From the NCBI GenBank assembly GCA_041615815.1, contig JBFJCP010000001.1, positions 204,337-268,336 of the forward strand: a DNA stretch of 64,000 nt. Reading direction: 5' to 3'. The position numbers and the translations under genes are program-made. This document shows positions 20,485 to 50,063 of the stretch, in pieces (position 1 is the first letter of the stretch; each line of letters starts with the position of its first letter). Below the pieces are notes generated by a model. It was not told the DNA's origin. It made no database searches and saw only the letters and a program-made list of their open reading frames with translations. The stretch comes from Gemmatimonadales bacterium (GTDB taxonomy: Bacteria; Gemmatimonadota; Gemmatimonadetes; Gemmatimonadales; GWC2-71-9).

Positions 20485-20769
20485 ATGTCCGATAATGCGT
20501 TGGGGCTCATTGAAACGCGCGGCCTCGTAGGGTCGATCGAGGCGGCTGACGCCATGGTCAAAGCCGCCCCCGTCCGGCTGGTCGGGAAGGAGAAGGTCGG
20601 CGGCGGTTATGTGACCGTCATGGTTCGTGGCGACGTCGGGGCCGTCAAAGCCGCCACCGACGCCGGCGCGGCCGCCGCGGACCGAGTGGGGGAACTGGTC
20701 TCCGTCCACGTCATCCCGCGGCCGCATCAAGAGATCGAGCTGATCCTACCGCAGCGCGACGAGGGTTAA
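20485..20769 (+). CDS. BMC-H shell protein (PduA/EutM-like)
   Basis: [49 protein letters not shown]. Confidence 0.96.
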
Positions 20770-20772
20770 CTC

Positions 20773-21258
20773 GTGGCCTGGTCGGGCCGGGCCCTCGGGC
20801 TGATCGAGACGCGGGGATTAGTCGGCGCGCTCGAAGCCGCGGATGCGGGAGTGAAGGCCGCTGACGTCGAGCTGGTGGGAGTAGAGTATGCCGACGCGGG
20901 GCTGATCACGGTGCATTTCCAGGGTGACGTAGCCGCGGCGAAAGCGGCGGTGGATGCCGGTGCTGCCGCCGCCGAGCGGGTGGGTCAGCTCGTCTCGGTC
21001 CACGTAATCCCGCAGCCGGATCCCGGCATCGACGTCATTGCCGATGAGGTGCACGGCGCCAACACCGCCGATATAGGCACGGGGAGTGGGGGAAGCTCCA
21101 GTGTGGTCCCGGACCCCGCCCGGCTGCGCTCCATGAAAGTCGTGGAGCTCCGGCGCGCCGCGCGGCGCGTGAAACACTTCCCGATCCAAGGCCGCGCCCT
21201 CGCCAGGGCAAGCCGGGAAGAGATTCTCCAGGGCTTCGAGAGCCTGGGGATGTTGTGA
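20773..21258 (+). CDS. BMC-H shell protein with C-terminal helical extension
   Basis: ALGLIETRG...AADAGVKAA...GDVAA...HVIPQP, then linker and LRSMKVVELRRAAR domain. Confidence 0.92.
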   Translation: MAWSGRALGLIETRGLVGALEAADAGVKAADVELVGVEYADAGLITVHFQGDVAAAKAAVDAGAAAAERVGQLVSVHVIPQPDPGIDVIADEVHGANTADIGTGSGGSSSVVPDPARLRSMKVVELRRAARRVKHFPIQGRALARASREEILQGFESLGML

Positions 21259-21358
21259 GGGAGATGCGTCATCCCCCTGCCGTCACCGCCGCTCCTGCCC
21301 CTATCCATGCGGCAGCGGCGGCGGCTGAGTCCCTCGCCGGTCCACTCCCCGCCTAGCC

Positions 21359-24415: not shown

Positions 24416-26426
24416 CCTCCTCCTGCTCGCGAGCGCCGCGCCCACGGCTACCGCCCAAGACGCGGCGGTGGTGGACGCGGTGGCAGCGATCCTCGCGACC
24501 GAGGACGCCCGCCGGTACGATCGCGTCGTACTCGAACAGGGCGCACGACACGAAGCCCCTGTCATTCGGCGCCGCGCGGTCCTCGCCATGGCCCGTATCG
24601 GTGACCGCCTTGCCGTCCCGACCCTCTTGACCCTCCTCGCGGATCCGGACAGCACGATCCGTCAAGACGCCGCGTTTGCACTGGGCCAGCTCGCTGATCC
24701 GGCCGCGGTTGCGCGCTTGCGGGAACTAGTGCTGGCCACTCCCACCCCCGATCATACACAGCTGCACGCGGAAGCCGTGTCCGCGCTCGTGCGGATTGGG
24801 GGTTCCGACGCGGCCAACATTCTGAGTGAGCTCATGACACGCTCTGGCACGGCAGGGTCGGCGAGCCCGCTCGCTCCGTCGCTCACTCGCGCGCGGCGCG
24901 AGGCGTGGCGCCTCCACTCCCACGCCCCCATCGCGATTCTCACCCAAATGGCGCAATCGGCCCTCCCCACCGTGCGGCACGCCGCCGTGTATTCGCTGGC
25001 CAGGCTGCGTCATCCGCAATCGTTACCAGTGCTGGTTCGAGCCACCGACGATCCCGATCCGGCCATCCGCGCGCTCGCGGCTCGCGCCCTCGTCAAGCGC
25101 ACAGCCGACTCCGCGGGTCAGGATCCCCGTGACCTCGCCGAGCGCGTCCGCAGGCTGGTGGACGATCCGGACCCCACCGTCAGGATCCAAGCACTCCGCG
25201 CGCTGGCGACGTACGAGAGTCCGCAATTCGGCCGCACCGCGCAGGACGCCACCGCTGACGCCAACCTGCACGTCCGCCTGCAGGCGCTGGCGACCGTCGG
25301 CGTCTTGGGCGGGCCGGACGCCGCTCGCGTGGCACGCGAGTACACGCAAGCCGGTCCGTTCGCGCTCCGGTATCGAGCCCTGCTCAGCCTGGCGCAACTC
25401 GATGGTCGGGAGGGGCGCGAGCGTGCCCTCACGTGGGTGCGGGACCCGGCCTGGTTTCGCCGAGCGGCGGCGGCCGAAGCGTTGGGATTGGCTGGTGGAG
25501 ATACCGCGTTACTGTGGCTCGAGCGACTCGTCGAGGACCCGGACGGCCGCGTGGCGGCCCAGGCGTTCGCAGTCCTGCGGCAGGCAGACGCCACCCGGGC
25601 CTCGTCGCTCGCGCGTGCAATGCTAGTCCACCCCGATCCCGTCGTCCGCACGTTCGCAGCCGAGCACCTCGCCTCCGACCCCAACCGGTCCGATGTCGAT
25701 CGCCTGGTGGACGCGTATGGCCGGGCGCGCGACGATACAATCCCTGACGCGAGGATGGCCGCCGTCGCGGCACTGGGGTCCATCGCAGCCGAGGGACTCG
25801 CGGCACGCGTGGCCGTCCAGGAAGCGCTGTTTGGCCGATTCCCACGCAGCGACGATTACCTGGTGCGACGCGTTGCGGCGGAAGCCATACCCGATGCGGA
25901 AAGCCGCTGGGGACCCGTTGCCCCGATGGCGACGGGGCGGGAGATCGGCGACTATCGGGAGATCGCCCGCCGGCTCGTGCTGCCGGCTGCGCGGGGAGAA
26001 CCGCTCCCAACGGTGACGGTCGAAACGGAGCGAGGCCGCCTCGTCATCGAGCTCTTTGCCCACGAGGCACCGATGACCGTCAATGCCATCCTGCGGCTCG
26101 TTGACCGTCGATTCTACGACGGGCTCACGGTGCATCGCCTCGTTCCGGGTTTCGTGCTGCAAACGGGCGATCCCAGAGGCGACGGGTGGGGCGGACCGGG
26201 CTTCACGCTCCGAGACGAGGTGAGTCGCCGGCCGTACGAGCGCGCAACGGTCGGGATGGCGCTGTTCGGTCCCGACACCGGCGGCAGCCAGTTCTTCGTG
26301 ACCCTCGTGGAACAGCCGCATTTGGAGCGGACCTACCCCGTGGTCGGTCGCGTCGTCGACGGCGTAGACGTGCTGGAACGCATCCTCCCAGGAGATCGCA
26401 TTCGGACCGTGCGGAGGGGACGATGA
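24345..26426 (+). CDS. HEAT-repeat protein fused to a cyclophilin-type PPIase
   Basis: Many DPDxxVR HEAT repeats; C-terminal FYDGLTVHRLVPGFVLQTGDP and DTGGSQFF; start uncertain. Confidence 0.88.
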   Translation: MLSPACPAKFAIGSFPFPIRFACSLLLLASAAPTATAQDAAVVDAVAAILATEDARRYDRVVLEQGARHEAPVIRRRAVLAMARIGDRLAVPTLLTLLADPDSTIRQDAAFALGQLADPAAVARLRELVLATPTPDHTQLHAEAVSALVRIGGSDAANILSELMTRSGTAGSASPLAPSLTRARREAWRLHSHAPIAILTQMAQSALPTVRHAAVYSLARLRHPQSLPVLVRATDDPDPAIRALAARALVKRTADSAGQDPRDLAERVRRLVDDPDPTVRIQALRALATYESPQFGRTAQDATADANLHVRLQALATVGVLGGPDAARVAREYTQAGPFALRYRALLSLAQLDGREGRERALTWVRDPAWFRRAAAAEALGLAGGDTALLWLERLVEDPDGRVAAQAFAVLRQADATRASSLARAMLVHPDPVVRTFAAEHLASDPNRSDVDRLVDAYGRARDDTIPDARMAAVAALGSIAAEGLAARVAVQEALFGRFPRSDDYLVRRVAAEAIPDAESRWGPVAPMATGREIGDYREIARRLVLPAARGEPLPTVTVETERGRLVIELFAHEAPMTVNAILRLVDRRFYDGLTVHRLVPGFVLQTGDPRGDGWGGPGFTLRDEVSRRPYERATVGMALFGPDTGGSQFFVTLVEQPHLERTYPVVGRVVDGVDVLERILPGDRIRTVRRGR

Positions 26427-29254
26427 GACGCCGGTGGATTGCGCTGCCCGGGTGCTGCCTGTGGCTCACCTTCGCCGCGCCCCCGGCCCGGGCGCAAATC
26501 GACTATTTCGGACAGAACAAGGTGCACTACCGCAACTTCCAGTGGCGGGTCCTGCGGGGTGCACATGTGGATTTGTATTACTACGCCGAGGAGTCCGAGC
26601 TCGCGCGCGCGGCGTTGGAAGCCGCCGAACGCACCGTTCGAGAGCTCGAATGGAAGTTCGGACACACGCCGACCGCTCGGATCCCGCTCATCGTGTACGC
26701 GTCTCATGCCCATTTCGAGCAGACCAACCTCGTGCCATTCGTCCCGCCCGAGGGGCTGCTGGGCGTCACTGAGTTCTTACGGCGGCGGGTCACGCTCCCA
26801 TTCAACGGGAACTACGCCCAGTTCCGGCACACGCTGCAGCACGAACTCGTTCACGCCTTTCAGCTGAGTCTCCTTGCCGAGACGTATCGGCGGCACCCCA
26901 GGGGGCGGCGACCCCGTATTCCCCTCTGGTGGAGCGAGGGGCTCGCCGAGCTGTGGTCTGGTGGTGAGGACACCCGAGACGACATGCTGCTCAGAGAGCT
27001 CACGATCGCGGGGCGCCTCCCAACGCTCGAGCAGTTGACCTACACCGTGAGCGGGGTGGTGTATCCCTTGGGAGGCGCCATTCACCGGTGGCTGGCCGAG
27101 CGCTTCGGTGAATGGCGGGTGGCGGTCTTCTATCGGGACCTGTGGAAATACCGGACGTTTGCCGAGGCATTGGAGGACGTCTATGGGGTGCCGCTCGACG
27201 AGATCGAGAACGCGCTTCGCTACGACTTCCGACGCCGGTATTTCCCAACGGTCACCGAGCGACGTCCATTGGACGTGAGCGCCGAACGTCTCGTCGAGCG
27301 CGGGAGTCGTCCCGTCGCCTATGGACTCGCCGGCGACTCAACAACGCGCATTCTGTTCCTATCGGGTCGTACTGGCGCGGTCACCATCTACTCGACGCCG
27401 CGGGACCCATCTGATCGGCCCAACGTGGTGCTCCGCGGTGAGCGCTCGGCCGAGTTCGAGTCGCTCCATCCCCTTGCCTCTCGGTTGGACGTCCGCGGGG
27501 GTGTAGCCGTCTTCTCCAGCAAATACCACGAGCGGGACGCGTTGTTTTTTTGGGATCTCGCGCAGGAACGCGTCGTCGGACGCTACCAGTTCCCCGAGCT
27601 GGTGTCGATACGCTCCCCCTCGTGGGCGCCGGACGGTGAAAGCGTCGTCATGAGCGGACTTTCCCGCGCCGGGTACGCGGACCTCTACCGGGTCCAGCTG
27701 CCCCATGGTCACCTCGAGCGCTTGACCGCGGACCGATACGACGATCGCGATCCCAGTATCAGCCCAGACGGCACGACGGTAGTGTTCGCGTCCGATCGGA
27801 CGCTTTTTGGATCCGGCGGCGCGTTGAATCTCTGCCTCCTGGACCTCGCGTCCCGGACGGTGCGGCCCCTCACGTTCGGACCGTGGCGCGACGAAAGCCC
27901 GCGGTGGGGAGACAACGGTCGTATCTACTTCACGTCCGATCGTGCGGGCGTGTTCGATATCTACTCCGTCGACTCGGTCGGAATGGGACGTCGAGAAACG
28001 GTGACATTGACCGGAGCATTCGACCCCCAGTGGCTGTCCGACACACAGGAGCTGCTGTTCTCTGGCTGGGCGGGCTCGTCGTTCCACGTGTACCGGTCCC
28101 GCGCCGATGCTGTGCCCTCTGCCCCGACATTCGAACTGCCCGATTCGGCCCGCTTAGGCTGGGCATGGCCGGAGCTGACGCAGCCCCTGGCGTTTGAGCT
28201 GGAGCCGGTGCCATACGAGCGCCGCCTCAGTTTGGACGTCGTCGCGGGGGATGCACTCGTGGCGCCGGGTCTCGGCACGGCCCAAGGAGCGCTCTTTCTG
28301 TTTTCGGATCTCCTGGGCGATCACCTCGCGCTGGTGAGTGCCACGACGTTTCAGGGAGAAGGGTTTGGAGGGTTGATCGACAACCTCAACGGGCAAGTGT
28401 TCTACCTCAACCAGAAGCGCCGACTCAATTGGGGTGCAGGTGCTTTCCGTCTGCGGGGCCTGTTTCTCGAAGGCGATCTCAGCACGGTGTACGAGGAGAC
28501 CGCCTGGGGCGGGTTTGGCGTCGTCCGCTGGCCGTTTTCGCGCTACGAGCGGATCGAGGGACAGCTCCGCTTTGAGCGCTCCGATCGGTTCGATCGCCTG
28601 TCGAATGATGTGGGGGAGGAGCGCCGGGTGGGCTGGCTCGCGTCCAATTTCCTGAGTTATGTGTCCGACAATTCCCTGTGGGTTCCCACGGGACCGATCG
28701 ACGGTCATCGCATCAATCTGACAGCGGGTGTCACCAACGACCTTACGAACGGTCGTTTCGATGCCTGGACCCTTTCCATCGATCATCGGCGATATCTGCG
28801 GCTCGGCGTCCGGTCTGCCTTTGCACTCCGCACGTTCGGCTATGTGACGGGGGGAGCGCATCCGCGCCGTATCTCGATCGGGGGAACGTGGGGCCTCCGC
28901 GGGTACCCGCGCATCGGACGCATCACGGGAACGCGCGCATTCTTGATCAACAATGAGGTACGATTTCCTCTCACCGACTTTCTCGCGATCCGGTTTCCGA
29001 TCGGTGAGCTCCGGCTTCCCGGGATGGAAGGGGCACTGTTCGCCGATCTCGGTGGCGCGTGGACTGACGCCTCCACCGATCGCGGGGCGCTCGGCAGCGC
29101 CGGGCTCGGCGTGCGCATGCCCATTGGTTTTCCGCTCGTGTTGCGACTCGATGTCGGCTGGCGTTTTGCACTGGGCGAAACGCGCGGGTATGGGCTAGCT
29201 TCGAACGCGATCGGGGGTAGATTCGTAGACTTCTTTTTTGGATTTAACTACTGA
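26423..29254 (+). CDS. Gluzincin-like peptidase / PD40 propeller / Omp85 barrel fusion
   Basis: FGQNKV, HELVH...WWSEGLAE, PSWAPDG/PSISPDG repeats, LRGY, terminal FFFGFNY. Confidence 0.85.
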   Translation: MRRRWIALPGCCLWLTFAAPPARAQIDYFGQNKVHYRNFQWRVLRGAHVDLYYYAEESELARAALEAAERTVRELEWKFGHTPTARIPLIVYASHAHFEQTNLVPFVPPEGLLGVTEFLRRRVTLPFNGNYAQFRHTLQHELVHAFQLSLLAETYRRHPRGRRPRIPLWWSEGLAELWSGGEDTRDDMLLRELTIAGRLPTLEQLTYTVSGVVYPLGGAIHRWLAERFGEWRVAVFYRDLWKYRTFAEALEDVYGVPLDEIENALRYDFRRRYFPTVTERRPLDVSAERLVERGSRPVAYGLAGDSTTRILFLSGRTGAVTIYSTPRDPSDRPNVVLRGERSAEFESLHPLASRLDVRGGVAVFSSKYHERDALFFWDLAQERVVGRYQFPELVSIRSPSWAPDGESVVMSGLSRAGYADLYRVQLPHGHLERLTADRYDDRDPSISPDGTTVVFASDRTLFGSGGALNLCLLDLASRTVRPLTFGPWRDESPRWGDNGRIYFTSDRAGVFDIYSVDSVGMGRRETVTLTGAFDPQWLSDTQELLFSGWAGSSFHVYRSRADAVPSAPTFELPDSARLGWAWPELTQPLAFELEPVPYERRLSLDVVAGDALVAPGLGTAQGALFLFSDLLGDHLALVSATTFQGEGFGGLIDNLNGQVFYLNQKRRLNWGAGAFRLRGLFLEGDLSTVYEETAWGGFGVVRWPFSRYERIEGQLRFERSDRFDRLSNDVGEERRVGWLASNFLSYVSDNSLWVPTGPIDGHRINLTAGVTNDLTNGRFDAWTLSIDHRRYLRLGVRSAFALRTFGYVTGGAHPRRISIGGTWGLRGYPRIGRITGTRAFLINNEVRFPLTDFLAIRFPIGELRLPGMEGALFADLGGAWTDASTDRGALGSAGLGVRMPIGFPLVLRLDVGWRFALGETRGYGLASNAIGGRFVDFFFGFNY

Positions 29255-33744: not shown

Positions 33745-34137
33745 ATGCATCGAGCGCTCGTCTGCACCAGCCTCGTCGTCTCCGTCACCTGCGCCTCGAG
33801 CACCCAAACCGGCGAGCCGCGCCCGAGCCGAAGCGTGATCACGGCCGATCAAGTTGCGGCGGAAGATCTTCAGGGAGCCACTGCTTGGGAGGTGGTTGAG
33901 CGGTTTCACAGCGATTGGCTCTTGGGCTCCCCCCCCACGTCCCCCAACGATCCCCCTAGGCTGTACCCCGTCATTTATGTCGACGACATCCGCATGGGCG
34001 ACCTCGAGACGCTGCGGACCGTGCCGGGGGGCGACATTCGGGACATTCGCCTCATTGCGCCCAGGGACGCCATCTTCCGCTACGGAGTGGGCCACGATGG
34101 CGGCATAATCGCCATACGCACCAAGCTGAAACACTAA
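33745..34137 (+). CDS. Small lipoprotein resembling an isolated TonB-receptor plug domain
   Basis: SVTC lipobox-like; VITADQV...PVIYVDD...DIRDIRLI...RYG...GGIIAIRTK; no barrel. Confidence 0.7.
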   Translation: MHRALVCTSLVVSVTCASSTQTGEPRPSRSVITADQVAAEDLQGATAWEVVERFHSDWLLGSPPTSPNDPPRLYPVIYVDDIRMGDLETLRTVPGGDIRDIRLIAPRDAIFRYGVGHDGGIIAIRTKLKH

Positions 34138-34197
34138 TCTCCGTGGGGACTTGTGGTTACGGTACCTCGCATATACATTCCGGCGGTTGGAAGCCGG

Positions 34198-34215
34198 TTC
34201 GAACGTACGTTCGAA
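34198..34215. promoter_or_regulatory. Perfect 18-bp palindrome, SOS/Cheo-box-like
   Basis: TTCGAACGTACGTTCGAA. Confidence 0.5.
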
Positions 34216-34534
34216 TAACCCGGTCGCCCGGGAACCGGCGACCTGACAACGAGTAGCATTGCCAGAGCCCTGCTTTGGGCACCGCGGGCGGTCCTTACCC
34301 TCCCAGTAGAGGCGTCGCGGTAACTGGTTCATTAAAGAGACAGCGAGGTCGCGACACCGGGATGACCGGTGACGTTGGTTTGTGCTTATGACCCCATTCG
34401 TTTGGTGCGCGCTGTGGATACGCACCGCAATCAGCTCCCTCCCTTTCTCCCATTTCGGGGGTTCCGCCTATGATCCGTCCCATTGCTTTCGTTCGATTCT
34501 CTCTTTCGTCAACCCAACAGTGAGGATGCGACAC

Positions 34535-37500
34535 ATGAGTTTGCGACGTGCTATCCTCGCCGCGGGGACCGTGTTCGCGCTGATCCTGAGCCTACCGTTG
34601 GTAGCTCAGGCGCAGCAGGGAACGATCCGCGGCACCGTGACGGCCCGGGCCACCGGCGAAGCACTGCCGGGCGCCAGAGTGCAGTTGGTAGGCACCACCC
34701 GGTTCGTCGCCACCGCCTCCGACGGGAGCTACGAGCTCAGCGGAGTGCGGGTAGGCCAAGTGCAGGTGCGCGTGGCCATCATCGGGTACCTCTCACAGAC
34801 GGCGAGCCTCGAGGTCAGTGCCAACCAGACCGCGACGGTGGATTTCCAGCTGTCCGAGTCGGTGCTCACGCTCGACGCCGTGGTGGTCACGGCGCTCGGC
34901 GAGCAGTCCGCCCGCGAGGTGTCCAACGCGATGTCATCCGTGAACGTGGCAGATCTCATGGACGCCGCGCCGCAGGTGAACATCACGGAAGTCCTCCAGG
35001 GCAAGGCCCCCGGCGTGACCCTGCTTCAGTCCTCCGGTACCACGGGGTCTGGGCACTCGATCAAGATCCGGGGCAACTCGTCCATCAACCTGAGCAATAC
35101 GCCTCTCATCTACATCGACGGCGCTCGGGTGGACAATGACAACAACGCCAACCCCCAGGGCTTTGGCGTCGGTGGTCAGGACGCCAGCCGCCTCAACGAC
35201 ATCAACCCTTCCGACATCGAGCGGATCGAGATCGTCAAAGGTCCCTCCGCTTCGACGCTCTACGGGACCGAAGCTGCCGCTGGCGTGATCCAGATCTTCA
35301 CCAAGAAGGGCCGCCGCGGCGCCGCGCCGGAGTTCAATTTCCGCACGGACCTGGGCAACAACTGGAAGAACGAGTACACCTTTGCACCCAACGTCTGGAA
35401 TCCGCTCTCCTTCGGGTTCGGGTTTGACACGCTCTACGTGATGAACCTGCTGGAAGAGGCGGACGCCCGCGGTAACTATGGGAGTCCCTTCCGCAACGGC
35501 TTCATGCAGACGTACGCCGGCTCCATCCGCGGTGGTACGGATGACGTGACCTACTACGTCTCGGCCGAGTTCCAGGACGAAGAGGGGATTCTGCCGAACA
35601 ACCAGATGACCCGCTACTACGGGCGCGGCAATTTCAACATCAGCCCCGCCCCAACGTGGGACCTCCAGGCCAGCGTCGGTTACACCAGCAACTTCCTGTC
35701 GCTGCCCGACAACGACAACAACGGCTTTGGCTACATCGGCGTGGCCCAGGTGGGCTTCCCGTGGAACGCCTCGATCATGGCGTCCGACCCGATCGCGGGT
35801 GGAAGTCCGATCCTGACATGTCCCTTCGCCGTCGAGCTGGCGCGTCTTGGCGCCGGCACCCTGGCGGACAATAGCCCCGGCGGCGCGGCCAATGCATGTC
35901 CTGAGGCGGCCGGGTTCGGTGGCCGGACCTTTGCCGATGTGGCCTCGCTGCAAAACCGGCAGGCCGTTGAGCGCATGACCGGGAGCACGACGGCCCGGTG
36001 GCGTCCCACCGAGTTCTGGAGCAACCGCTTCACGCTCGGTTATGACCTCATCGATCAGCGCTCGAGCACGCTCGTTCCGGTGAACCCGGATCGGCCCTTT
36101 GGCTCGCTCTCCGAGGGAGACCGAGATCTGTCCACGTTGACCGAGCGTAATCTGACGGTCGACTACTCGGGCTCGCTCAACTTTTCGTTTGGCGACGTGG
36201 GGACGGTCACGTCCTTCGGGTTCCAGTTCTTCCGTGAAGTGCAGGAGCTCGTACGGTGTAACGGGGGTGAATTCCCGGCCGGCGCCACGACGTGTTCCAA
36301 TGCTGTGACGACGGACGGCTTCGAGACGTATGCGGAGAACAAGACCCTCGGTCTTTACATCCAGGAGCAGTTCAGCTGGATGGACCGGATCTTTGTCACA
36401 CCGGCTGTCCGGTTCGACGAGAACAGTGCCTTCGGGCGGAACTTCGACATTCAGGTATACCCCAAGGTGGGCGTGTCGGCCATCGCCATCGATGAGCCCA
36501 TCGGCCCCCTCGATCAGCTGAAGTTGCGTGGCGCGTGGGGACGCTCAGGCAAGGCCCCCACCAACACGGCGTCCTTCGAGACGTTCAATGCGCGCGGCTT
36601 CGCTATCGGCCTGCAGGACGCCCTGGGCGTCGTGCCGCAGCAGCCGGGTAACCCGGATCTCCAACCCGAGCTGGGCGAGGAATGGGAAGCCGGTTTCGAT
36701 GTTGGTTTGCTCAACAACCGGGTGGGCCTCGAAGCCACGTACTACCAGCAGAAGACGCTGGACGTGCTGGTGACCAGGCCGCAGGCACCCTCCTTGGGCT
36801 TCCCCAACGCGGTGTGGGACAACTTGGGTCGGATGGACAACCGAGGCTTCGAGTTCGCCCTGAACGTGAATGCGTTCAATCAGCCCAATCTGCGGTGGGA
36901 TTGGACCATCAACTTCGCCACCAACGACAACGAGATCAAAGAGCTGGAGCAGTTCGTCCCGCTGTCGTTTGGCGCGAGCCAGCGGCACCAGGAGGGCTTC
37001 CCCTTCGCCGCGTACTTCACCGAGATCATCACGTTGGATGCCAATGGTGATCCAATGGTGGTCCCGTATGACGACGCCCTGGATATCCTGGATGGCGTCA
37101 ATGACGATCACCAGCTTGTCGGACAGCCCACCCCCGAGTGGGAGGGTTCGGTCTCGACGTCGATCAACTTCCTGCGGCACTTCACGCTGTACGCCTTCCT
37201 TGACTTCAAGGGCGGGCATCAGCTGTTCAACTCCACCGAAGAGTTCCGCTGCGGCTTCTTGGGCGGCGGCGAGAATGGTGGCGTGTGCCCCGAGATGTTC
37301 GAGAAAGACGCCAACGGTGACTTCACGGCGGACGCCAAGATCAAGCAGTTTGCTTCGGCGATCCAGTCTGAGTTCCCGTGGGTTGAGGACGCCGACTTCA
37401 TGAAGCTCCGCACGCTCTCGCTCAAGTTCCAATTCCCGGAAGAGTGGGCGCAGATGCTGCGGATGAAGCGGGTGAGTGTGTCGTTCGCCGGATACAACCT

Positions 37501-37633
37501 GAAGACCTGGACGGGGTACTCGGGCGCCGATCCCGAGATCAACAACTTCGGCCAGAACGAGGTGATCCGCGCGGACTTCCTGACGCTACCGCCACAGCGG
37601 CGGTTCGTCGGAACGTTCTCGATCACGTTTTAA
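34535..37633 (+). CDS. SusC/RagA family TonB-dependent receptor
   Basis: Signal peptide, carboxypeptidase-regulatory-like domain, LDAVVVT, PLIYIDG, DINPSDIERIEIVKGPSASTLYG, GNPDLQPE, terminal Phe. Confidence 0.95.
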   Translation: MSLRRAILAAGTVFALILSLPLVAQAQQGTIRGTVTARATGEALPGARVQLVGTTRFVATASDGSYELSGVRVGQVQVRVAIIGYLSQTASLEVSANQTATVDFQLSESVLTLDAVVVTALGEQSAREVSNAMSSVNVADLMDAAPQVNITEVLQGKAPGVTLLQSSGTTGSGHSIKIRGNSSINLSNTPLIYIDGARVDNDNNANPQGFGVGGQDASRLNDINPSDIERIEIVKGPSASTLYGTEAAAGVIQIFTKKGRRGAAPEFNFRTDLGNNWKNEYTFAPNVWNPLSFGFGFDTLYVMNLLEEADARGNYGSPFRNGFMQTYAGSIRGGTDDVTYYVSAEFQDEEGILPNNQMTRYYGRGNFNISPAPTWDLQASVGYTSNFLSLPDNDNNGFGYIGVAQVGFPWNASIMASDPIAGGSPILTCPFAVELARLGAGTLADNSPGGAANACPEAAGFGGRTFADVASLQNRQAVERMTGSTTARWRPTEFWSNRFTLGYDLIDQRSSTLVPVNPDRPFGSLSEGDRDLSTLTERNLTVDYSGSLNFSFGDVGTVTSFGFQFFREVQELVRCNGGEFPAGATTCSNAVTTDGFETYAENKTLGLYIQEQFSWMDRIFVTPAVRFDENSAFGRNFDIQVYPKVGVSAIAIDEPIGPLDQLKLRGAWGRSGKAPTNTASFETFNARGFAIGLQDALGVVPQQPGNPDLQPELGEEWEAGFDVGLLNNRVGLEATYYQQKTLDVLVTRPQAPSLGFPNAVWDNLGRMDNRGFEFALNVNAFNQPNLRWDWTINFATNDNEIKELEQFVPLSFGASQRHQEGFPFAAYFTEIITLDANGDPMVVPYDDALDILDGVNDDHQLVGQPTPEWEGSVSTSINFLRHFTLYAFLDFKGGHQLFNSTEEFRCGFLGGGENGGVCPEMFEKDANGDFTADAKIKQFASAIQSEFPWVEDADFMKLRTLSLKFQFPEEWAQMLRMKRVSVSFAGYNLKTWTGYSGADPEINNFGQNEVIRADFLTLPPQRRFVGTFSITF

Positions 37634-37701
37634 CTGACGAGGCCAACCTTCCGGGGTCGCAGGCGCGGCCCCGGGGGCTGCCATAGATCTGGAGATTACG
37701 T

Positions 37702-39111
37702 ATGCGATTTGATCTGAAGCCGATTAAGAAGGTCCTGATGGTGGGCCTCGTCGGCGCCATCGTCGGATCTGTCGGCGCCTGTGGGTTTTCCGACCCGCTG
37801 CGTGTCCAAGATCCGGGAACGCTCACGGATGATGAGCTGACGGGCGTGGGCGCGGTTCCCGCCACGGTGAACGGCATGATCGGACAGTTCCAGGAAGCCC
37901 TGGACGATTACGTCCGATACTCCTGTCTGTTTACCGATGAGTGCATCCTTGCCGGCACGTTCCCGACGCGGGTCGAGGTCGAGAACCGCCGGATCACCAC
38001 CGCCAACGTGTCGTTGGACGATGAGGTGTACGAGCCGATCCACACGGCCCGCTTCCAGGCGGACAACACGGTAGAGCAGTTCCAGACGATCGACCAGAGC
38101 GATCCTGAGTTCGCGGGCGTCGTCGGTAAGATCCAAGAGGGAATCGTTGCTGGATTCCTATACGGGGGCTACACCCGGGTCCTCTTGGCGGAGCTGTATT
38201 GCGAAAGCGCCATCAATGCCGGTTCCTACGTCTTTTCGGACGAACGGATGCGCGACGCGCTGACGATCCTGGAACAGGCAGAGACGGAGGCCAACAATGT
38301 TGGTCTCTCGAGCTACGCCAACGCCGCCATCGTGGGACAGGCCCGCGCACATCTGTGGCTTGGCGAAGATGGCAACGCCGCGGCCGATGCAGCGCGCGTG
38401 CCGGCCGGGTTCGTATTCAACGCGAATTACTCCGAGAACGACGACGCCAGCTTCAACGAAATGCACTCCTCGAGTTGGGGCCGCGGCGGCTGGGTCATCC
38501 GGTGGACCGTGGGTGACGGTACCCGAGGCGACCGGAACAACGAGCGCTTTGGTCAGCAGCTCGTGACCCAGGGTGTAAACGTGACCGACTCGTTCGACGA
38601 GTGGGTCAATATCGGCCTGATCGATCCGGATCCGGGCCCGAACTTTGTGGCCTTCAACAGCGCAATTCCGGTGAAGCTGCAGCTGAAGTACCGCGCCGGG
38701 ACCGCGCCCATTCGGATCGCCTCCACGACGGAAGCCGATTTCATCGAGGCCGAGGCCGCCATCCGCGGCAGCGATTTCGCGACCGCCAACACGATCGTGA
38801 ACGGCTATCGGGCCACGTGGACCGACGAGACCACCGGCAATCCACTCCCGGCTATCGATTATGCAGCGCTGCCGGACCTGCAGAGCCGCCTCATTCAGCT
38901 CGCGCAGGACAGGAACCGCGACATGTGGCTCGAGGGTGAGCGACAGGGCACGTTCCGGCGGTTTTTCCGTCGCGACGGCATCGACCTGTACACGCCGGTC
39001 ACGGCAGCCGCCACCTTCAACCAGATCTGCTTCCCGGTGCACCAGCAGGAGCTGGATACCAACAGCAATCCTGCCAACTGCCCCGATCCCTCCGTGCCCT
39101 GCACGCCGTAA
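37702..39111 (+). CDS. SusD/RagB family lipoprotein
   Basis: VGAC lipobox; ARAHLW, EAEAAIR, RNRDMWLEGER; follows susC. Confidence 0.88.
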   Translation: MRFDLKPIKKVLMVGLVGAIVGSVGACGFSDPLRVQDPGTLTDDELTGVGAVPATVNGMIGQFQEALDDYVRYSCLFTDECILAGTFPTRVEVENRRITTANVSLDDEVYEPIHTARFQADNTVEQFQTIDQSDPEFAGVVGKIQEGIVAGFLYGGYTRVLLAELYCESAINAGSYVFSDERMRDALTILEQAETEANNVGLSSYANAAIVGQARAHLWLGEDGNAAADAARVPAGFVFNANYSENDDASFNEMHSSSWGRGGWVIRWTVGDGTRGDRNNERFGQQLVTQGVNVTDSFDEWVNIGLIDPDPGPNFVAFNSAIPVKLQLKYRAGTAPIRIASTTEADFIEAEAAIRGSDFATANTIVNGYRATWTDETTGNPLPAIDYAALPDLQSRLIQLAQDRNRDMWLEGERQGTFRRFFRRDGIDLYTPVTAAATFNQICFPVHQQELDTNSNPANCPDPSVPCTP

Positions 39112-39143
39112 CGCAGGTTCACAAAGAGGCAGAGCGCGTAGTC

Positions 39144-39178
39144 ACCGGGCGCCCCTTCGGGGGCGCCCGGTTTCTTCT
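39144..39178 (+). terminator. Rho-independent terminator
   Basis: ACCGGGCGCCCC-TTCG-GGGGCGCCCGGT then T-rich tail. Confidence 0.85.
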
Positions 39179-39325
39179 CGCCGCTCGCTTGCGTCGCCCT
39201 CAGCCAACTCCCAGTTTTCTGACCGGCACCAAGGCTCGCTTTTACGGCACGCCCCATCCCGCCCTTCCCACCCATTACGCGGATCCGGCGCCGAGTGGGA
39301 GGCGGATGACACCGCGGAGGACTCC

Positions 39326-39739
39326 ATGTACTACCGCCGTCTGAATGTCGCCTCACTGGCCCTCGCCGTCATCGTTCTCGGGTGCGGTAGCGGGGGGGGA
39401 GCCGACACCGCAACGGACGGACCGACCCCCCAACGATCCGGTCGCAATCGGTTGACCCAGGCCGAGATGTTGGAGACCACGGCCACGACCGTCTACGAAG
39501 CGGTGCAGCAGCTGCGGCCGACCTGGTTCACCCCACGAGGTACCGATCCGAGTAGCGGTGACCCGCTCATCCCGGTGGTCTACGTGGATGGCGTGCGAGC
39601 GGGAGACCTCGAGTTCCTGCGGCAACTGCGCATCGAGGAGGTCGAGCGCCTCCGCTACATCAATGCGCGGGACGCCACCACGCGCTGGGGAACGGGGGTG
39701 CCCGGGGGCGTCATCGAGGTCTCGCGCGCTCGAGGCTAG
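39326..39739 (+). CDS. Small lipoprotein resembling an isolated TonB-receptor plug domain
   Basis: VLGC lipobox; LTQAEM...TVYEAVQQLRP...PVVYVDGVR...EVERLRYI...RWG...GGVIEVSR; GGAGG RBS. Confidence 0.75.
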   Translation: MYYRRLNVASLALAVIVLGCGSGGGADTATDGPTPQRSGRNRLTQAEMLETTATTVYEAVQQLRPTWFTPRGTDPSSGDPLIPVVYVDGVRAGDLEFLRQLRIEEVERLRYINARDATTRWGTGVPGGVIEVSRARG

Positions 39740-39819
39740 CGCGCGCGAAGTCGGCCGATCGCGCTGGCGGCCGCCGCCGTGACTGGGTACCATTCGACGC
39801 GGTTGACACTCCCGCACCC

Positions 39820-39893
39820 CGGGGCGTGGCGCAGCTCGGTAGCGCGCCTGGTTTGGGACCAGGAGGTCGCCGGTTCAAATCCGGCCGCCCCGA
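39820..39893 (+). tRNA. tRNA-Pro (UGG)
   Basis: CGGGGCG acceptor stem; CCTGG-TTTGGGA-CCAGG anticodon arm; GGTTCAAATCC. Confidence 0.96.
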
Positions 39894-39925
39894 CTGCGAG
39901 TCCTCCGCCGAGGGAAGAGGAAGGT

Positions 39926-40399
39926 ATGCAAAGGCCAATCAGCTGGGCGCTCGCCCTCGTCCTGGCCTCCTGTTCGGGAGGCACGCCGTCACCCGACGGT
40001 CCGAGTCCCCAAGTCTCCTCTCGCAACGCCTTGGCTGGATCGGATCTCCGAGCCACGGGCGCCTCGAGCGTCTACGACGCGCTGAAGCAGCTGCGCCCCA
40101 CCTGGCTCACTCCGCAGCGCTCGTTGTCACGCGAAGGCGCACTCGCGGGAGGAGCCTCGTCGTCAGGCCGCAACGAGGCGGACCCCCGCCAGGCAACCTC
40201 GGGGTCCGCAGGGGCTAGCTCGGGGGTCGCGTTGGCCGTGGTCCTGGATGGCATCCGCGTGGGCGGTGTCACGTACCTCCAGGGATTATCGGTGGAAGGC
40301 GTTCAGGTGATTCGTCTCATCGAGGGCACGGAGGCCGCACGACGTTGGGGCCCGCAAGCCGGTGCCGGAGTGATCGAGGTCGTCCGTGGCGGCTCCTGA
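39926..40399 (+). CDS. Small lipoprotein, divergent isolated plug-like domain
   Basis: LASC lipobox; SVYDALKQLRPTWL...VVLDGIR...RWG...AGVIEVVR. Confidence 0.7.
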   Translation: MQRPISWALALVLASCSGGTPSPDGPSPQVSSRNALAGSDLRATGASSVYDALKQLRPTWLTPQRSLSREGALAGGASSSGRNEADPRQATSGSAGASSGVALAVVLDGIRVGGVTYLQGLSVEGVQVIRLIEGTEAARRWGPQAGAGVIEVVRGGS

Positions 40400-43518: not shown

Positions 43519-43962
43519 TTATTGGGGCCTTGGACCTGGTCCCGGTCCCCCATTACCACCGTCGCCGCCCACCAGTTGCTCGACGGAGAAGATCACGAGC
43601 CCGAGCGCCCCAACGCCGGCCCCGGCGAGGACGGCCGTGCGCCAGGCGGATACCCGGCGCTCCTGGAGCGCCTCCACTCGCTGCCGCGGAATGGCGAGAC
43701 GGGCCCCGTAGCCCCGGTGCTTGGCACCGGCGACGGACCAGAGGTAGTCCGCGGTGACGATCAGCGAATCTGCCGAGTTCGCCAGGTAGGTGCCCTCGAT
43801 GCGGTTGAGATTCTGGAGAAGGGCCCCCACCACTTGAAACTCGATTGGCTCGTTCAAGTCCATTTGCACCGTCTTACCCGGAGTGGGGGCAACCCCGTCC
43901 AGCGGCACGAGCTGTACGCAGCCAGCGAGCAGGCAAAGCGAAAGACAAAAGACCGGCTTCAA
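43519..43962 (-). CDS. Hypothetical lipoprotein with C-terminal hydrophobic segment
   Basis: LAGC lipobox; TTG start inferred with GAGG RBS. Confidence 0.6.
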   Translation of the reverse strand: MKPVFCLSLCLLAGCVQLVPLDGVAPTPGKTVQMDLNEPIEFQVVGALLQNLNRIEGTYLANSADSLIVTADYLWSVAGAKHRGYGARLAIPRQRVEALQERRVSAWRTAVLAGAGVGALGLVIFSVEQLVGGDGGNGGPGPGPRPQ

Positions 43963-45373: not shown

Positions 45374-48300
45374 ATGTCCCCTGCACGTAGTTGGCTTGCT
45401 CGGTTCCTTACCGCGGGCCTCGTTGCGGTGTTCTGCACCGCGACGGCGGCCGCGCAACAGGGAATCGGCACTGTCCGGGGCGTCGTGACTGATGATGTCA
45501 GTCGACGCCCCATTTCTGCGGCACAGGTTTATGTGCCGGGCTTGGAGGCCCTGGGAACGATTACGGACTCCGAGGGCCAGTTCGAGCTCAACCTGCCTCA
45601 GGGTGCCCACCGGCTCACGGTGCGCCGCGTGGGGTACGCGACCAGCGGCTTGAACATCACCGTCACCGCCGGCCAGGTCACCGAGACCAACTTCCAGCTG
45701 AAGCAAGTCGTGATTCTGCTGGATGAGGTCGTCGTGACCGGTGCCGGAGCCGCGACCGAGAAGAAGCGACTCGGCAACACCGTCGCCTCCATCAAGACCA
45801 GCGAGCTCGAGAACGCTCCCACGGCAAACTTCTCGGAGCTGCTCGCTGGACGTGAGCCCAACGTCTCCGTGATTCCCTCCGGGGGCTATGCAGGCGAAGG
45901 CGCACGCATTCGCATTCGAGGATCCGCCAGCCTCTCGCAGTCCAACGAGCCGATCATCTACGTGGATGGTATTCGCGTGGATAACGGCGGCGGGATTCAA
46001 GGAACCAACGTCGGTTCCGGCGGTGGCGGTGGCACGTCCCGTCTGGACGATATCAACCCCGACGCCATCGAGCGCGTGGAGATCCTGAAGGGCGCCGCTG
46101 CTGCGACACTCTACGGCACGGAAGCCTCCAACGGCGTGATCCAGATCTTCACCAAGAAGGGTGCGCAGGGTGCGCCGAAGTTCGACTTCTCGCTCGAAGT
46201 CGGGGCCACGAGTCCCAATTCGGATCGCATCAAGAAGAACACGGGATTCGTCCGGGCCGGAGACGAGGCTCGGCTCTCCCAGTTCTGGGCAAATTCTCCG
46301 ATCTGCCGGAATCTGTCCGGTGGATCCTGCGCTAGCATGTCGGCCTATGACATCTTCGAGGTCGACTACTACGACGCACTCTTCGAGACCGGCTTCAACC
46401 AGGCCTACTCCGGCTCGGTGAGCGGTGGGTCCTCCATCTTCACGTACTTCGTGTCCGGCCGCTTCTCCAGCGACCAGGGCCAGATCACGACCAAGCCGTT
46501 CGACGGCCTTGCCGACGACTTCAACCGCTTGGTTCAGGCGTCGGCCAACATGGAGATCATCCCCCACGAGAAGGTCCGTCTCCGCATCAACAGCCAGGTG
46601 GCCGATGTTGGGCACAAGACCCCGGAGAACGGCAACAACATTTGGGGACTGATCCCCTCGGCGATGGATGCGAAACCCGAGCGCGCGACGTGCGATACCT
46701 CCTTCGGCAATGGAACGCCGAATGGTGACGGCACGTGCGATCCTGTCGGCAACCCCGAGGGCGCCACGTTTGCGACCACACGGGAGATTGCGCAGACGTT
46801 CATCGAACAGGACGTGCGCCACTACACGTTGAGCCTCCAGACCCAGTACACGCCGGTGGCCGAGCTCAGCCTCGACGCCACGGTTGGTCTCGACTACACC
46901 TCCACGGAGAACGTCATCCAGTGGCCGTTTGCGTGGAACGTCGACGGTCTGGCTGGCGCGGACCCCTTGGGTAACCGCGGCATCGACAACCGCAATCGTC
47001 GTGAGATCACCGTCGAGACGAAAGCCCAGTGGGACGCTCGTTTCGGTGAGAACTTCAGTTCCACCTTCGTCGCCGGCGGGCAGGGCTTCATCGCCCGGAC
47101 AACGCAAAAGGGTGGCTTTGGCGCTGACTTCCCCGGCCCCGGTCTCGGAGTTGCCGGTGCGGCGGCCAGTCAGTCCGTCAGCGAGTCGTTCCTGGAAGTG
47201 GTCAACGCTGGTGCTTTTGCCCAGGAGCAGTTCGGCTTGTATGACGTCGTGTTCTTGACGGGCGGTTTGCGCTATGACCGCAACAGCGCGTTCGGGGAGC
47301 AGACCGAGGGAACGCTGTATCCCAAGGCCAGCATTTCGATCGTGCCCAGCGATCTGCCCTACTGGAACATCGCGCCGCTGTCCACGTTCCGGGTGCGGGC
47401 CGCCTGGGGTAAGTCCGGTCTCCAGCCGGGCGCCTTTGACAAGTTCACCACCTTCGCGGCCACGGCGTCGGCACTCGGACCAGGCCTCACGCCCGACAAT
47501 CTCGGCAACGATGCGCTCGAGCCCGAGAAGGCGACCGAGATCGAGCTCGGCGCCGAGTTTGGTCTGTTCGACAACCGCCTGGGCCTGGACTTCACCTGGT
47601 GGGATCGCTCGACCAAGGACGCGCTCTTCTCACGTCAGTTTGCGCCGTCCGGCGGCTTCACCAACCAGCAGATCGTGAACATCGGACAGGTGGACGCCAA
47701 CGGGTTGGAGTTCAACCTCACGGGACTCGTCGTGAACAAGCCCGATTTTAGCGTCCGCTTCTTCGGTAACGCTGCGTACCTCACAGAAACGGTCACCGAT
47801 CTCGGCGGATCGCCGCCACTCAAGGTCGGTGCGTCGTATATCCGTTACCGCGCTTGGTTGGTCGAGGGTTGGTCCCCCGGAGCGTTCTTCGGCAACCGGC
47901 TCCTCCCCACCCAGCCCGGTTTCTTTGCGATAGACACCAACGGCGACGGCCAACCCGACAGCGAAGCCGAAGTGCTGGCGTTCTTCGCCAATCCCGTCTC
48001 GAGCGGTTTCAGCTCGTCGGCCATCCGGCCGCTCGTGGAGAACTGCGACGCCAGCCAGTCGACCCCAGGCCCCCAGAGCGGCCCCTTCGGGTGCTACCTG
48101 GGTAAGCCGACACCCGACTGGCAAGGCTCGTTCGGGCTCAACATCGGGATCCTCGGCAACCTTGAGATCTCGTCGCTGTGGGAGTACAAGGCCGGTAACT
48201 TCTTCGTGCACAACCTGACCGATTCGTTCCGCTCGACGCACTCATTGATCGGACGGAACTTCGAGCAGGCAACCGCGGCGGAGCGCACCTTGGTCGACCC

Positions 48301-48670
48301 GTCGTCCACCGCACAGGATCGTTTGGCGGCGTGGCGCGTGTTCTCCGAGGAGCTCAAGCACCTGGCGCCGCTCAGCGGCCTCAACGCGGTCAGGCCGGCG
48401 GACTTCGTACGCTGGCGCGAGCTGAGCCTCACGTATCGGCTCCCCGTCGACTTCGTGCGGTCCAAGCTGGGACTGCGGTACGTAACGCTCAACGTCGCGG
48501 CCCGAAACCTCGCGCTGTGGACGAAGTACGACGGTATCGATCCGGAACTCAACTTGATCAGCCGCGGCAACGACTCGAACACGGCACAGGGCGACTTTGC
48601 CCAGAGCCTGGACGCGTGGGGCATTCCGGTCCCAACGCGGTTTACCTTCAATGTCCGGTTCGGCTTCTAA
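45374..48670 (+). CDS. SusC/RagA family TonB-dependent receptor
   Basis: LDEVVVTG, PIIYVDG, DINPDAIERVEILKGAAAATLYG, GNDALEPE, terminal Phe. Confidence 0.95.
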   Translation: MSPARSWLARFLTAGLVAVFCTATAAAQQGIGTVRGVVTDDVSRRPISAAQVYVPGLEALGTITDSEGQFELNLPQGAHRLTVRRVGYATSGLNITVTAGQVTETNFQLKQVVILLDEVVVTGAGAATEKKRLGNTVASIKTSELENAPTANFSELLAGREPNVSVIPSGGYAGEGARIRIRGSASLSQSNEPIIYVDGIRVDNGGGIQGTNVGSGGGGGTSRLDDINPDAIERVEILKGAAAATLYGTEASNGVIQIFTKKGAQGAPKFDFSLEVGATSPNSDRIKKNTGFVRAGDEARLSQFWANSPICRNLSGGSCASMSAYDIFEVDYYDALFETGFNQAYSGSVSGGSSIFTYFVSGRFSSDQGQITTKPFDGLADDFNRLVQASANMEIIPHEKVRLRINSQVADVGHKTPENGNNIWGLIPSAMDAKPERATCDTSFGNGTPNGDGTCDPVGNPEGATFATTREIAQTFIEQDVRHYTLSLQTQYTPVAELSLDATVGLDYTSTENVIQWPFAWNVDGLAGADPLGNRGIDNRNRREITVETKAQWDARFGENFSSTFVAGGQGFIARTTQKGGFGADFPGPGLGVAGAAASQSVSESFLEVVNAGAFAQEQFGLYDVVFLTGGLRYDRNSAFGEQTEGTLYPKASISIVPSDLPYWNIAPLSTFRVRAAWGKSGLQPGAFDKFTTFAATASALGPGLTPDNLGNDALEPEKATEIELGAEFGLFDNRLGLDFTWWDRSTKDALFSRQFAPSGGFTNQQIVNIGQVDANGLEFNLTGLVVNKPDFSVRFFGNAAYLTETVTDLGGSPPLKVGASYIRYRAWLVEGWSPGAFFGNRLLPTQPGFFAIDTNGDGQPDSEAEVLAFFANPVSSGFSSSAIRPLVENCDASQSTPGPQSGPFGCYLGKPTPDWQGSFGLNIGILGNLEISSLWEYKAGNFFVHNLTDSFRSTHSLIGRNFEQATAAERTLVDPSSTAQDRLAAWRVFSEELKHLAPLSGLNAVRPADFVRWRELSLTYRLPVDFVRSKLGLRYVTLNVAARNLALWTKYDGIDPELNLISRGNDSNTAQGDFAQSLDAWGIPVPTRFTFNVRFGF

Positions 48671-48698
48671 AACCGGCTACCGCGAAAGCACAGGAGCT

Positions 48699-50063
48699 AT
48701 GAACATGCTTAGATCCAAGCTATTGCGCGGCGCCGGCTGGCGAGCACGGGTGACTCCCGTGCTTGCCGTCGTAGCCGCGTTGGCGTTGGCAGGGTGCGAC
48801 AATCTGATCGACGTCCAAAACCCCAACAACGTCAACGAAGAAAACGTCAATGACCCCGTTTCCGCGTTGGCCATTGCGAGCGGCATCCTGTCTGAGGTCC
48901 AGGACGCCTGGGAAGAGTCGCTCACGCCCTATTCCACTGCCACAGATGAATTGAAGTGGGTGGGGTCGCGGGATTCCTGGACGCAACTGGAGCGCGGTGA
49001 CCTCGGTGACCCCATCAACGAGTTCACCGACGCGGCGTTTCCGGACGTCGGTGAAGCCAGGTGGCTTGCCGACGAGGGGATCAAGATTCTCGAGGGATTC
49101 GATCCGGCGGATTACGACCCGATCAACCTCGCCCAGGCGTACCTCTACGGCGGCGTGCTGTACATGTCGATCGCGGACCGCTGGGACGACTTCGTGATTT
49201 CGTCCAGCAAGCAGGAGGCGGGACCGCCGGTTGGCGAGGCCAACATGGCGTCGCTGTATGACACCGCGGTCGCGTACTTCACCAGCGGGCTCGCGATTGC
49301 TGTGAGCGAGGGCAATACGGAGCTCCAGACCCGTTTCCTGGCGCTTCGCGCTGTTGCGCGGCACCGTCAGGCCGTCTGGAACGTGGTGCAACCCTCGTTC
49401 ACGGGTCCCGCACCGGTGTACGTGAGCCTGCCAGCGGCAGCAATTCAGGATGCCAATGATGCGCTCGCGTTGATCGGGCCGGCGGACTGGCAATTCGGCT
49501 TCGTCTACTCCGCCCAGACCCGGACCAACACCATGGCGTTCTGGGTCAACGAGCGCCTGGAGCACCGGGTGGACGATCGCTACGGGGTGCCCGATGGCTC
49601 GGACAAGACCGTCAATGCGACGGCCCTGCTCGATCCGATCGACGGGACCCCCGACCCGGAGCTCGACCAGATCATCTTCGACGAGCTCACCTGCTGCGGC
49701 GACGAGAGCCCGTTGCGGATCACGTCAGTGCATGAGCTTTACCTGATTCTGGCGGAAGACGCCATCGCCACTAGCGCTGACGTGAACGATCCGGCGGCCG
49801 TGGGATTCATCAACAGCCTGCGTGCATTGAACGGATTGACACCCTTCAACGCGTTGACCCATGCGCCGCTCACGGCTGCAGATCACGTGCAGCACCACCG
49901 ACAGGCTAGCCTGTTCGTGCACGGCGTTCGACTCTCGGACATGTATCGGTTTGGGATCACCGACACGCGGTGGGTAGCGGGATCGCAGGCACTCACATCG
50001 CCCGGCGTATTCCTGCCGATCACGACGATCGAGTGCAACGCGAATCCAAACATATCCTGCTAA
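48699..50063 (+). CDS. SusD/RagB family lipoprotein
   Basis: LAGC lipobox; LILAEDA, INSLRA, SLFVHGVRLSDMYRFG. Confidence 0.88.
   Translation: MNMLRSKLLRGAGWRARVTPVLAVVAALALAGCDNLIDVQNPNNVNEENVNDPVSALAIASGILSEVQDAWEESLTPYSTATDELKWVGSRDSWTQLERGDLGDPINEFTDAAFPDVGEARWLADEGIKILEGFDPADYDPINLAQAYLYGGVLYMSIADRWDDFVISSSKQEAGPPVGEANMASLYDTAVAYFTSGLAIAVSEGNTELQTRFLALRAVARHRQAVWNVVQPSFTGPAPVYVSLPAAAIQDANDALALIGPADWQFGFVYSAQTRTNTMAFWVNERLEHRVDDRYGVPDGSDKTVNATALLDPIDGTPDPELDQIIFDELTCCGDESPLRITSVHELYLILAEDAIATSADVNDPAAVGFINSLRALNGLTPFNALTHAPLTAADHVQHHRQASLFVHGVRLSDMYRFGITDTRWVAGSQALTSPGVFLPITTIECNANPNISC

Follow-up and report, generated by a model that had tools for sequence, protein, structure and literature searches.

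Three small genes accompany a susC/susD pair

The 64,000-nucleotide stretch of DNA analysed here, hereafter the window, comes from a Gemmatimonadales bacterium (GenBank assembly GCA_041615815.1, contig JBFJCP010000001.1, positions 204,337 to 268,336 of the forward strand). It carries a susC/susD pair with three small genes around it, one upstream and two downstream, as the original prediction had described. We call the products mini-plugs, as they are predicted to share the fold of the plug of SusC-type TonB-dependent transporters. The gene order, all on the plus strand, is rph, rdgB, mini-plug gene 1 (33745..34137; 130 residues), susC (34526..37633), susD (37702..39111), a terminator-like hairpin (39144..39171), mini-plug gene 2 (39326..39739; 137 residues), tRNA-Pro(TGG) (39820..39894), mini-plug gene 3 (39926..40399; 157 residues) and a zinc dehydrogenase gene.

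According to a codon-pair model trained on the genome, all three mini-plug open reading frames are coding. Each product comprises a signal peptide and a cysteine (residue 16, 20 and 16, respectively), a low-complexity linker and a domain of ~95 residues that runs up to the stop. In line with the prediction that each gene ends after the plug motif, translation stops no more than 7 residues beyond the final strand of the plug. Pairwise identity with gene 2, a canonical member of the family, is 28–38%. Gene 1 is a divergent variant that lacks the R-G pair of the family and has a proline-rich loop, also present in both its orthologues. Gene 3 has a low-complexity insertion of ~25–30 residues, lies on a long branch and yielded no close orthologue.

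The neighbouring SusC/RagA-type transporter is complete. Its 1035 residues include an N-terminal extension, a TonB box (residues 117–123; 34874..34894), its own plug domain, located by PF07715 and used in the hhalign comparison below (34913..35287), and a barrel. It matched TIGR04056 above the cut-off, with 476 bits, as well as PF13715, PF07715 (residues 130–254) and PF00593. The SusD-like lipoprotein, of 469 residues, has acidic residues after its cysteine; it had no Pfam match, and a homologous neighbour in a related locus (L132) matched PF07980.

The hairpin in the interval between susD and gene 2, identified by a consensus scan only, has 12 pairs, 11 of them G-C, and a T-rich tail. The scan returned 3 sites versus 5.1 expected in shuffled sequence; the stem of this one is long and directly 3′ of susD. 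Because the hairpin parts susD from gene 2 and the tRNA parts gene 2 from gene 3, the region is likely not one operon. A sigma-70 scan found no promoter-like site, and Rfam found nothing beyond two tRNAs over 30000–52000. The interval 5′ of susC (34138–34545) shares only short patches with those of the other two of the three orthologous loci (in the related genomes G001 and G002) and had no Rfam match at the gathering score.

The mini-plugs have the predicted fold of a TonB-transporter plug

Standard profiles only partly recover the predicted plug domain. None of the three proteins reached the PF07715 cut-off of 23.9 bits: genes 2 and 3 gave sub-threshold scores (17.3 and 16.1 bits, respectively) and gene 1 had no match. 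Similarly, genes 1–3 had no match to TIGR04057 at E ≤ 1, and the window's SusC proteins also score below its cut-off of 46.2 bits (35.8 and 40.0 bits). PF07715 matched 76 of 150 family members at E ≤ 0.01.

Profiles made from the family itself were more sensitive. With a profile from genes 1–3 alone, the genome's SusC proteins ranked right after a fourth paralogue. The family profile matched gene 1 at E = 1.6e-34 and gene 3 at E = 3.6e-25, and hhalign aligned it to the plug of the neighbouring SusC with a probability of 96.9% (E = 1.4e-10). The family profile also matched BtuB at E = 3e-5. The motifs that had been noted as shared by the three proteins do align.

An AlphaFold2 model of gene 2 had a mean predicted local distance difference test score of 83.6, exceeding 90 from residue 41 onward. 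All six Foldseek matches to this model at E ≤ 0.001, and every listed row, were TonB transporters. In VIA-align, TonB transporters occupied ranks 1–21, the best being FyuA (Z = 7.8, root-mean-square deviation (RMSD) 2.9 over 92 aligned residues); comparison with BT3090 (PDB 8AA4) gave Z = 3.8 and an RMSD of 2.5 over 92 residues. A Z score below 8 is modest alone, and the three methods concur. Gene 2 is thus predicted to have the TonB-transporter plug fold, with a central mixed sheet and helices; for genes 1 and 3 the fold is inferred from the family profile.

A 22-stranded β-barrel is absent from all three chains. Judged by length, no barrel fusion occurs among the best 150 family representatives, and a search of longer proteins gave a single weak match among 7999 scored.

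The mini-plug resembles a trimmed SusC plug

The family retains from the SusC plug the RGxxS motif, the YVDGxR strand, the helix and Y/W-G loop (AxTx(Y/W)GT) and the final GVI strand. Two segments have been lost. A 14-residue hairpin is missing: the spacing from P to RG is 5 in 150/150 members and 19 in 20/20 SusC proteins, a count that depends on the alignment. Most of the loop after DG is gone as well, the distance from D to L being 9–10 residues as opposed to 17–34 in SusC. In BT3090, plug residues Asp166, Asn167 and Asp193 bind dextran, according to a passage of PMC13450635; counted on the printed alignment, all three fall in the segments missing from the mini-plugs.

The best-kept motif of the family, in gene 2 numbering, consists of A117 (100%), T118 (94%), R120 (91%), an aromatic residue at 121 (99%) and G122 (99%). 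The same source places Tyr219 of BT3090 on the periplasmic side, where it holds the TonB-box arm; via Y246 of SusC, this residue aligns with W121 of gene 2, inside the motif. Three arginines are conserved specifically in the family: R64 (96%), R71 (95%) and R120. The last occupies the position of a leucine in SusC (L245), just before the Y-G pair. Of the lock positions, the first arginine, R71 (SusC R182), is kept and the second position (SusC K238) is S, N or D. The mini-plug is therefore derived, as far as the sequences tell, from a SusC-type plug with fixed losses and is not a plain copy of it.

The original prediction had included TonB decoys, which would bind TonB and limit its use, among the possible roles. 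The plug fold suits such a role. Against it, a TonB-box pattern occurred in 1/150 members, as opposed to all 14 scored SusC proteins (9 of 23 SusC rows were unscored), another pattern in 0/214 members versus 20/32 comparison proteins, and no tonB, exbB or exbD homologue was found in 120 family loci. We regard decoys as highly improbable. Overall, the features that would be required of a ligand receptor or a TonB decoy are gone from the mini-plug, and what remains is a stable core with a conserved surface marked by arginines.

The mini-plugs are likely lipid-anchored on the periplasmic side

Each of the three genes had been credited with a lipobox-like cysteine. This is borne out by sequence for genes 2 (Cys20) and 3 (Cys16); gene 1 is atypical (S-V-T-C16), and its orthologues have L/A-A-C. 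By a permissive rule, and with a profile that includes the signal and so biases the count, 208/214 short members have a lipobox cysteine. The mini-plugs are likely lipid-anchored. A linker with a median of 17 residues (151 scored) separates the cysteine from the first strand.

In Bacteroidetes, an acidic stretch directs lipoproteins to the surface, according to PMC5080379. Two or more acidic residues at positions +2 to +7 after the cysteine were found in only 1/208 members, whereas 17/28 SusD proteins of the same loci had them; the corresponding residues of the mini-plugs are small and neutral. Because they lack an acidic stretch, unlike SusD, the mini-plugs likely stay on the periplasmic side.

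The mini-plugs form a large family, and genes 1 and 2 are under purifying selection

A search with gene 2 retrieved 72 proteins among 260 candidates, nearly all of 120–190 residues. The family profile matched 514 cluster representatives (clusters at 50% identity) at E ≤ 1e-30 and 4947 at E ≤ 1e-10, although the weaker matches may comprise plugs of other kinds. In species-level genomes, 319/328 pattern matches were confirmed. Among 80 confirmed matches kept, 73 bore titles of Gemmatimonadota groups, 2 of Ignavibacteria, and 5 were other or unclassified. A match was present in 29/61 genomes of the phylum Gemmatimonadota and in 0/15 genomes from three distant families. The family is thus large, multi-copy, mainly from Gemmatimonadota and mostly unannotated, and is typical of a phylum from soil and sediment that has received little study.

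In a quick tree of 150 rows, genes 1–3 fell inside a 129-row clade (Shimodaira–Hasegawa-like approximate likelihood ratio test (SH-aLRT) support of 99), separate from the plugs of transporters and from free plugs of other types. Genes 2 and 3 belonged to one starred subclade and gene 1 was placed elsewhere. The tree rests on 129 columns, three duplicate loci having been removed beforehand; 65/147 forks were left open and only starred splits were used.

The genome encodes further barrel-less plug proteins. The fourth paralogue (contig C4:7484-8155, minus strand) has a signal peptide without a lipobox and an extra domain of ~100 residues before the mini-plug. It lies directly after a DUF5916 gene, and the same fusion occurs in G002 and G003; DUF5916 genes were otherwise present in 2/120 loci. 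A plug-only lipoprotein with a full SusC-like plug (contig C22:34742-35209, that is L002:7743-8210, minus strand; PF07715, 71.6 bits) is convergent with a susC-susD-FG-GAP run and clusters with SusC plugs in the tree. Six exported proteins (C26:45410, C24:59545, C1:51165, C2:171337, C3:57635 and C2:117498) combine immunoglobulin (Ig)-like domains with a plug-like C-terminus that ends in a C-G-x-I-x-x-W-T motif, and one of them directly follows a susD. Other members of the mini-plug family (P0076, P0077, P0078, P0079, P0081 and P0131) carry the domain either repeated in tandem or joined to an Ig-like domain or to hydrophobic segments that resemble glycine zippers. Tandem pairs of mini-plug genes are common.

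Synteny is conserved for genes 1 and 2 in G001 and for gene 1 in G002. The ratio of nonsynonymous to synonymous substitution rates (dN/dS) for gene 1 was 0.16 against G002, and 0.07 between G001 and G002; for gene 2 it was 0.19 against G001. The corresponding susC values were 0.17–0.19. Genes 1 and 2 are under purifying selection and hence are not debris; this result covers these two genes, gene 3 having no close orthologue. That mini-plugs are decayed fragments of TonB-dependent receptors, as the sub-threshold Pfam scores and the isolated, long-branched gene 3 might suggest, is contradicted for genes 1 and 2 by selection and synteny. Decay, which we consider barely credible, is further opposed by the dedicated signal peptide, by deletions that are fixed and by an end point that hundreds of clusters share.

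Linkage to susC/susD is real but loose

Among 31 related genomes, 15/54 profile hits lay within 3.1 kb of a TIGR04056 match, compared with 0.54 expected from SusC density. For the type represented by the window genes, the figure was 10/43; kin are not independent, and these 10 amount to about four independent loci. Two control envelope families gave 1/33 and 3/89 (~3%), the latter being RCC1, for which 89 of 126 rows were left once repeated hits within a frame had been removed. Family and SusC counts per genome were correlated (Spearman coefficient 0.59, again with kin not independent).

In the 120 loci, susC, susD or another TonB transporter flanked 21/125 rows of the window-gene type. The commonest neighbours were TonB-transporter or Ig-domain proteins (31/80 loci) and SusD (14/80 in the largest cluster). 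According to a FastTree phylogeny, the partner SusC proteins are spread over several separate subclades; the four partners of the SusC-like plug type form one clade. The tRNA beside genes 2 and 3 does not reflect a family trait, 80 loci containing 4 tRNA genes.

These data support the predicted paralogous family of likely lipid-anchored, barrel-less, plug-fold proteins enriched beside susC/susD, and show in addition that most members lie elsewhere. Linkage to susC is real but loose. Because about three quarters of members are not beside susC, a dedicated third SusCD component is not supported for the window-gene type. The absence of tonB, exbB and exbD from the loci also counts against a dedicated role, as does the finding that each of the genome's 15 PF00593 barrels is encoded in frame with a plug of its own.

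An uncharacterised lipoprotein family provides the positive comparison. It was first picked as a linkage control and proved to be susC-linked itself: 15/19 hits lay within 3.1 kb of susC, mostly at 1.4–1.8 kb. Its representative in the window (43519-43962, minus strand; start not fixed) and relatives (L150–L167) have a conserved G-C-Y after the signal and a C-terminal hydrophobic helix, and are predicted to form an Sm/LSm-like barrel (best Z = 8.5, RMSD 2.0, 64 aligned residues). The family also occurs in G017 and G019, genomes without mini-plugs. It is a better candidate than the free plugs for a fixed third component of SusCD.

Of the 21 adjacent rows, 14 follow susD directly, 7 on the same strand and 7 convergent. 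Together with the many divergent paralogues per genome, this position would fit surface-exposed lipoproteins that bind ligand and feed SusCD, like SusE/F in utilisomes. We nevertheless judge such a receptor, another of the predicted roles, to be very unlikely: the segments that bind substrate in BT3090 and the acidic, export-like stretch are both missing, and the convergent orientation and the terminator-like hairpin speak against co-transcription.

Other features of the window

Within 15 kb of the locus lie a second susC/susD pair (45374-50063, plus strand) and a third TonB-dependent transporter (51859-54414, minus strand). The second pair is followed by tRNA-Arg (50273), as the first is by tRNA-Pro. 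ARAGORN called a tRNA-SeC at 18002-18098 (plus strand). Judged by eye from N-termini, 20485-23946 (plus strand) contains microcompartment-shell-like genes and an aldehyde dehydrogenase. A 943-residue exported protein (26423-29254, plus strand) presumably combines, again by eye, a peptidase-like part, propeller repeats and an Omp85-like end, and downstream of it is a gene that we take to be LptE-like.

Possible functions of the mini-plugs

Together, the evidence describes small proteins that carry a lipoprotein-type signal, lack both barrel and TonB box, have the predicted fold of a trimmed SusC-type plug and likely reside on the periplasmic face of the outer membrane. We tentatively favour the hypothesis that they are optional, periplasm-facing binding partners of SusC-type transporters, which they would tune from inside. 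A chaperone, also among the originally predicted roles, or a regulator may fit the data as well. The partner would be a protein rather than a small molecule, because the outward substrate segments are gone and the best-kept motif maps to the loop that, in Bacteroides SusC, faces the periplasm and holds the TonB-box arm. We speculate that this loop might catch or shield a neighbouring SusC's N-terminal TonB-box arm once it is released, thereby damping or resetting TonB engagement; this specific capture is unlikely as it stands.

Several observations weigh against partnership with SusC. Besides the few independent loci behind the linkage, 67/125 rows have full flanks without a susC, susD or other TonB-transporter neighbour (37 are too short to tell), and a free plug lies within 3.1 kb of only 12/139 susC entries (144 rows before merging, a few of them partial). 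Four genomes that are 98–100% complete (G009, G014, G017 and G019) have SusC and no family match. The orientation relative to susC varies between upstream, downstream and convergent, a terminator-like hairpin stands between susD and gene 2, and the domain is also found fused to unrelated envelope domains or without a lipobox. In addition, these SusC proteins have not retained Tyr117, the partner tyrosine in the Bacteroides lock; position 124 is mostly Thr. Aromatic residue 121 is common to ordinary plugs and may thus be structural. Finally, the acidic export signal is established for Bacteroidetes only and is a proxy for Gemmatimonadota.

Nearly as likely as the SusC-partner hypothesis is repurposing of the mini-plug: tethered to the membrane, it would serve as an envelope interaction module for a partner other than a TonB transporter, and its proximity to susC/susD would reflect origin from susC and shared variable envelope loci. 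The many members away from susC, the fusions to glycine-zipper, Ig-like and other domains, the tandem plug repeats and gene pairs would all follow, as would the conserved R64, R71 and R120, the replacement of the SusC leucine by R120 being expected outside a barrel. A truly tied neighbour family, moreover, reaches 15/19. Adjacency of ~23%, by contrast, exceeds the ~3% of the two other envelope families and recurs with unrelated SusC subclades; no other neighbour family is as recurrent; and the family, a separate clade with SH-aLRT support of 99, has diverged too far from SusC plugs to stem from a recent local duplication. These points favour the view that mini-plugs are SusC partners.

The original prediction had also raised swappable plugs. 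That a free, lipid-anchored mini-plug acts in trans, entering or docking under TonB-dependent barrels to reseal them, hold them open or lock them, appears doubtful. A narrower version, in which it enters the lumen of the barrel, much as LptE does in LptD, as a placeholder during SusC assembly or to reseal the barrel when the native plug is out, is unlikely; the missing hairpin might then leave a partly open, TonB-independent pore. The retained fold core, the first lock arginine and a linker long enough to reach the lumen are compatible with entry. FhuA cork and barrel made separately have been studied in vivo, in work cited in PMC2615193, and a passage in 10.1101/2022.08.15.503959 implies plug-less SusC barrels in detergent. 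Entry is opposed by the altered residues at the second lock position and at L245, and by the absence of the family from near-complete genomes with SusC. No plug-less barrel was found among the genome's PF00593 or PF14905 hits, other barrel families having been surveyed in part, which weakens an obligate swappable plug.

Comparison with known systems

Among the closest known systems is the SusC/RagA plug (PF07715; BT3090, BT1763 and RagA), which the mini-plugs resemble in predicted fold and in the RGxxS, YVDGxR, AxTx(Y/W)GT and GVI motifs. They differ from it in lacking the barrel, N-terminal extension, TonB box and 14-residue hairpin, in the substrate loop of 9–10 residues, in the replacement of Leu by a conserved Arg ahead of the Y-G pair, and in having their own lipoprotein signal. 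LptE is a lipoprotein plug supplied in trans to LptD; it has another fold and is essential, with a single plug-less partner. Like LptE, the mini-plugs are small, probably lipid-anchored proteins that might extend from the periplasm into the lumen of a barrel. They differ in being patchy and multi-copy, in a genome where no plug-less TonB barrel was found. Utilisome lipoproteins of the SusE/F and BtuG types are likewise encoded next to susC/susD; the mini-plugs differ from them in plug fold, in loose and often convergent linkage and in the absence of an acidic, export-like stretch.

BamP of Flavobacterium johnsoniae is a periplasmic accessory, non-essential and present in several copies, that reaches into a barrel of the outer membrane, according to the sections of PMC12611786 that describe it, and offers a functional analogy only. 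We rejected it as a known free plug: the same sections give it two domains joined by a loop, with the C-terminal one consisting of three helices, and do not describe it as a plug. Among the other barrel-less envelope plugs of Gemmatimonadota that also occur in this genome, the SusC-like plug lipoproteins, whose genes are tail-to-tail with susD, lie outside the 129-row clade and have a longer segment at the hairpin position; the Ig-plus-plug proteins are absent from the tree.

The original prediction had named no characterised mechanism, and a literature search that covered main texts and few subscription journals found barrel-less plug lipoproteins nowhere described. The free, trimmed lipoprotein form is a variant of the known plug domain. 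New here are the fixed deletions, the difference in charge from SusD, the linkage controls and the absence of plug-less barrels.

Little is yet understood of how far the plug unfolds or exits the barrel in TonB-driven transport, and of how it is reset, as stated in a passage of 10.1101/2023.07.07.548152. The isolated plug of TbpA is reported to be stable in the title of a reference listed in 10.1101/2025.01.14.632903. A natural plug core of ~95 residues without barrel, TonB box or substrate loops provides a minimal model of the domain. If a mini-plug binds SusC, it would be a ready probe of gating; if it acts in trans, these proteins would represent a layer of control over outer-membrane import without a described counterpart.

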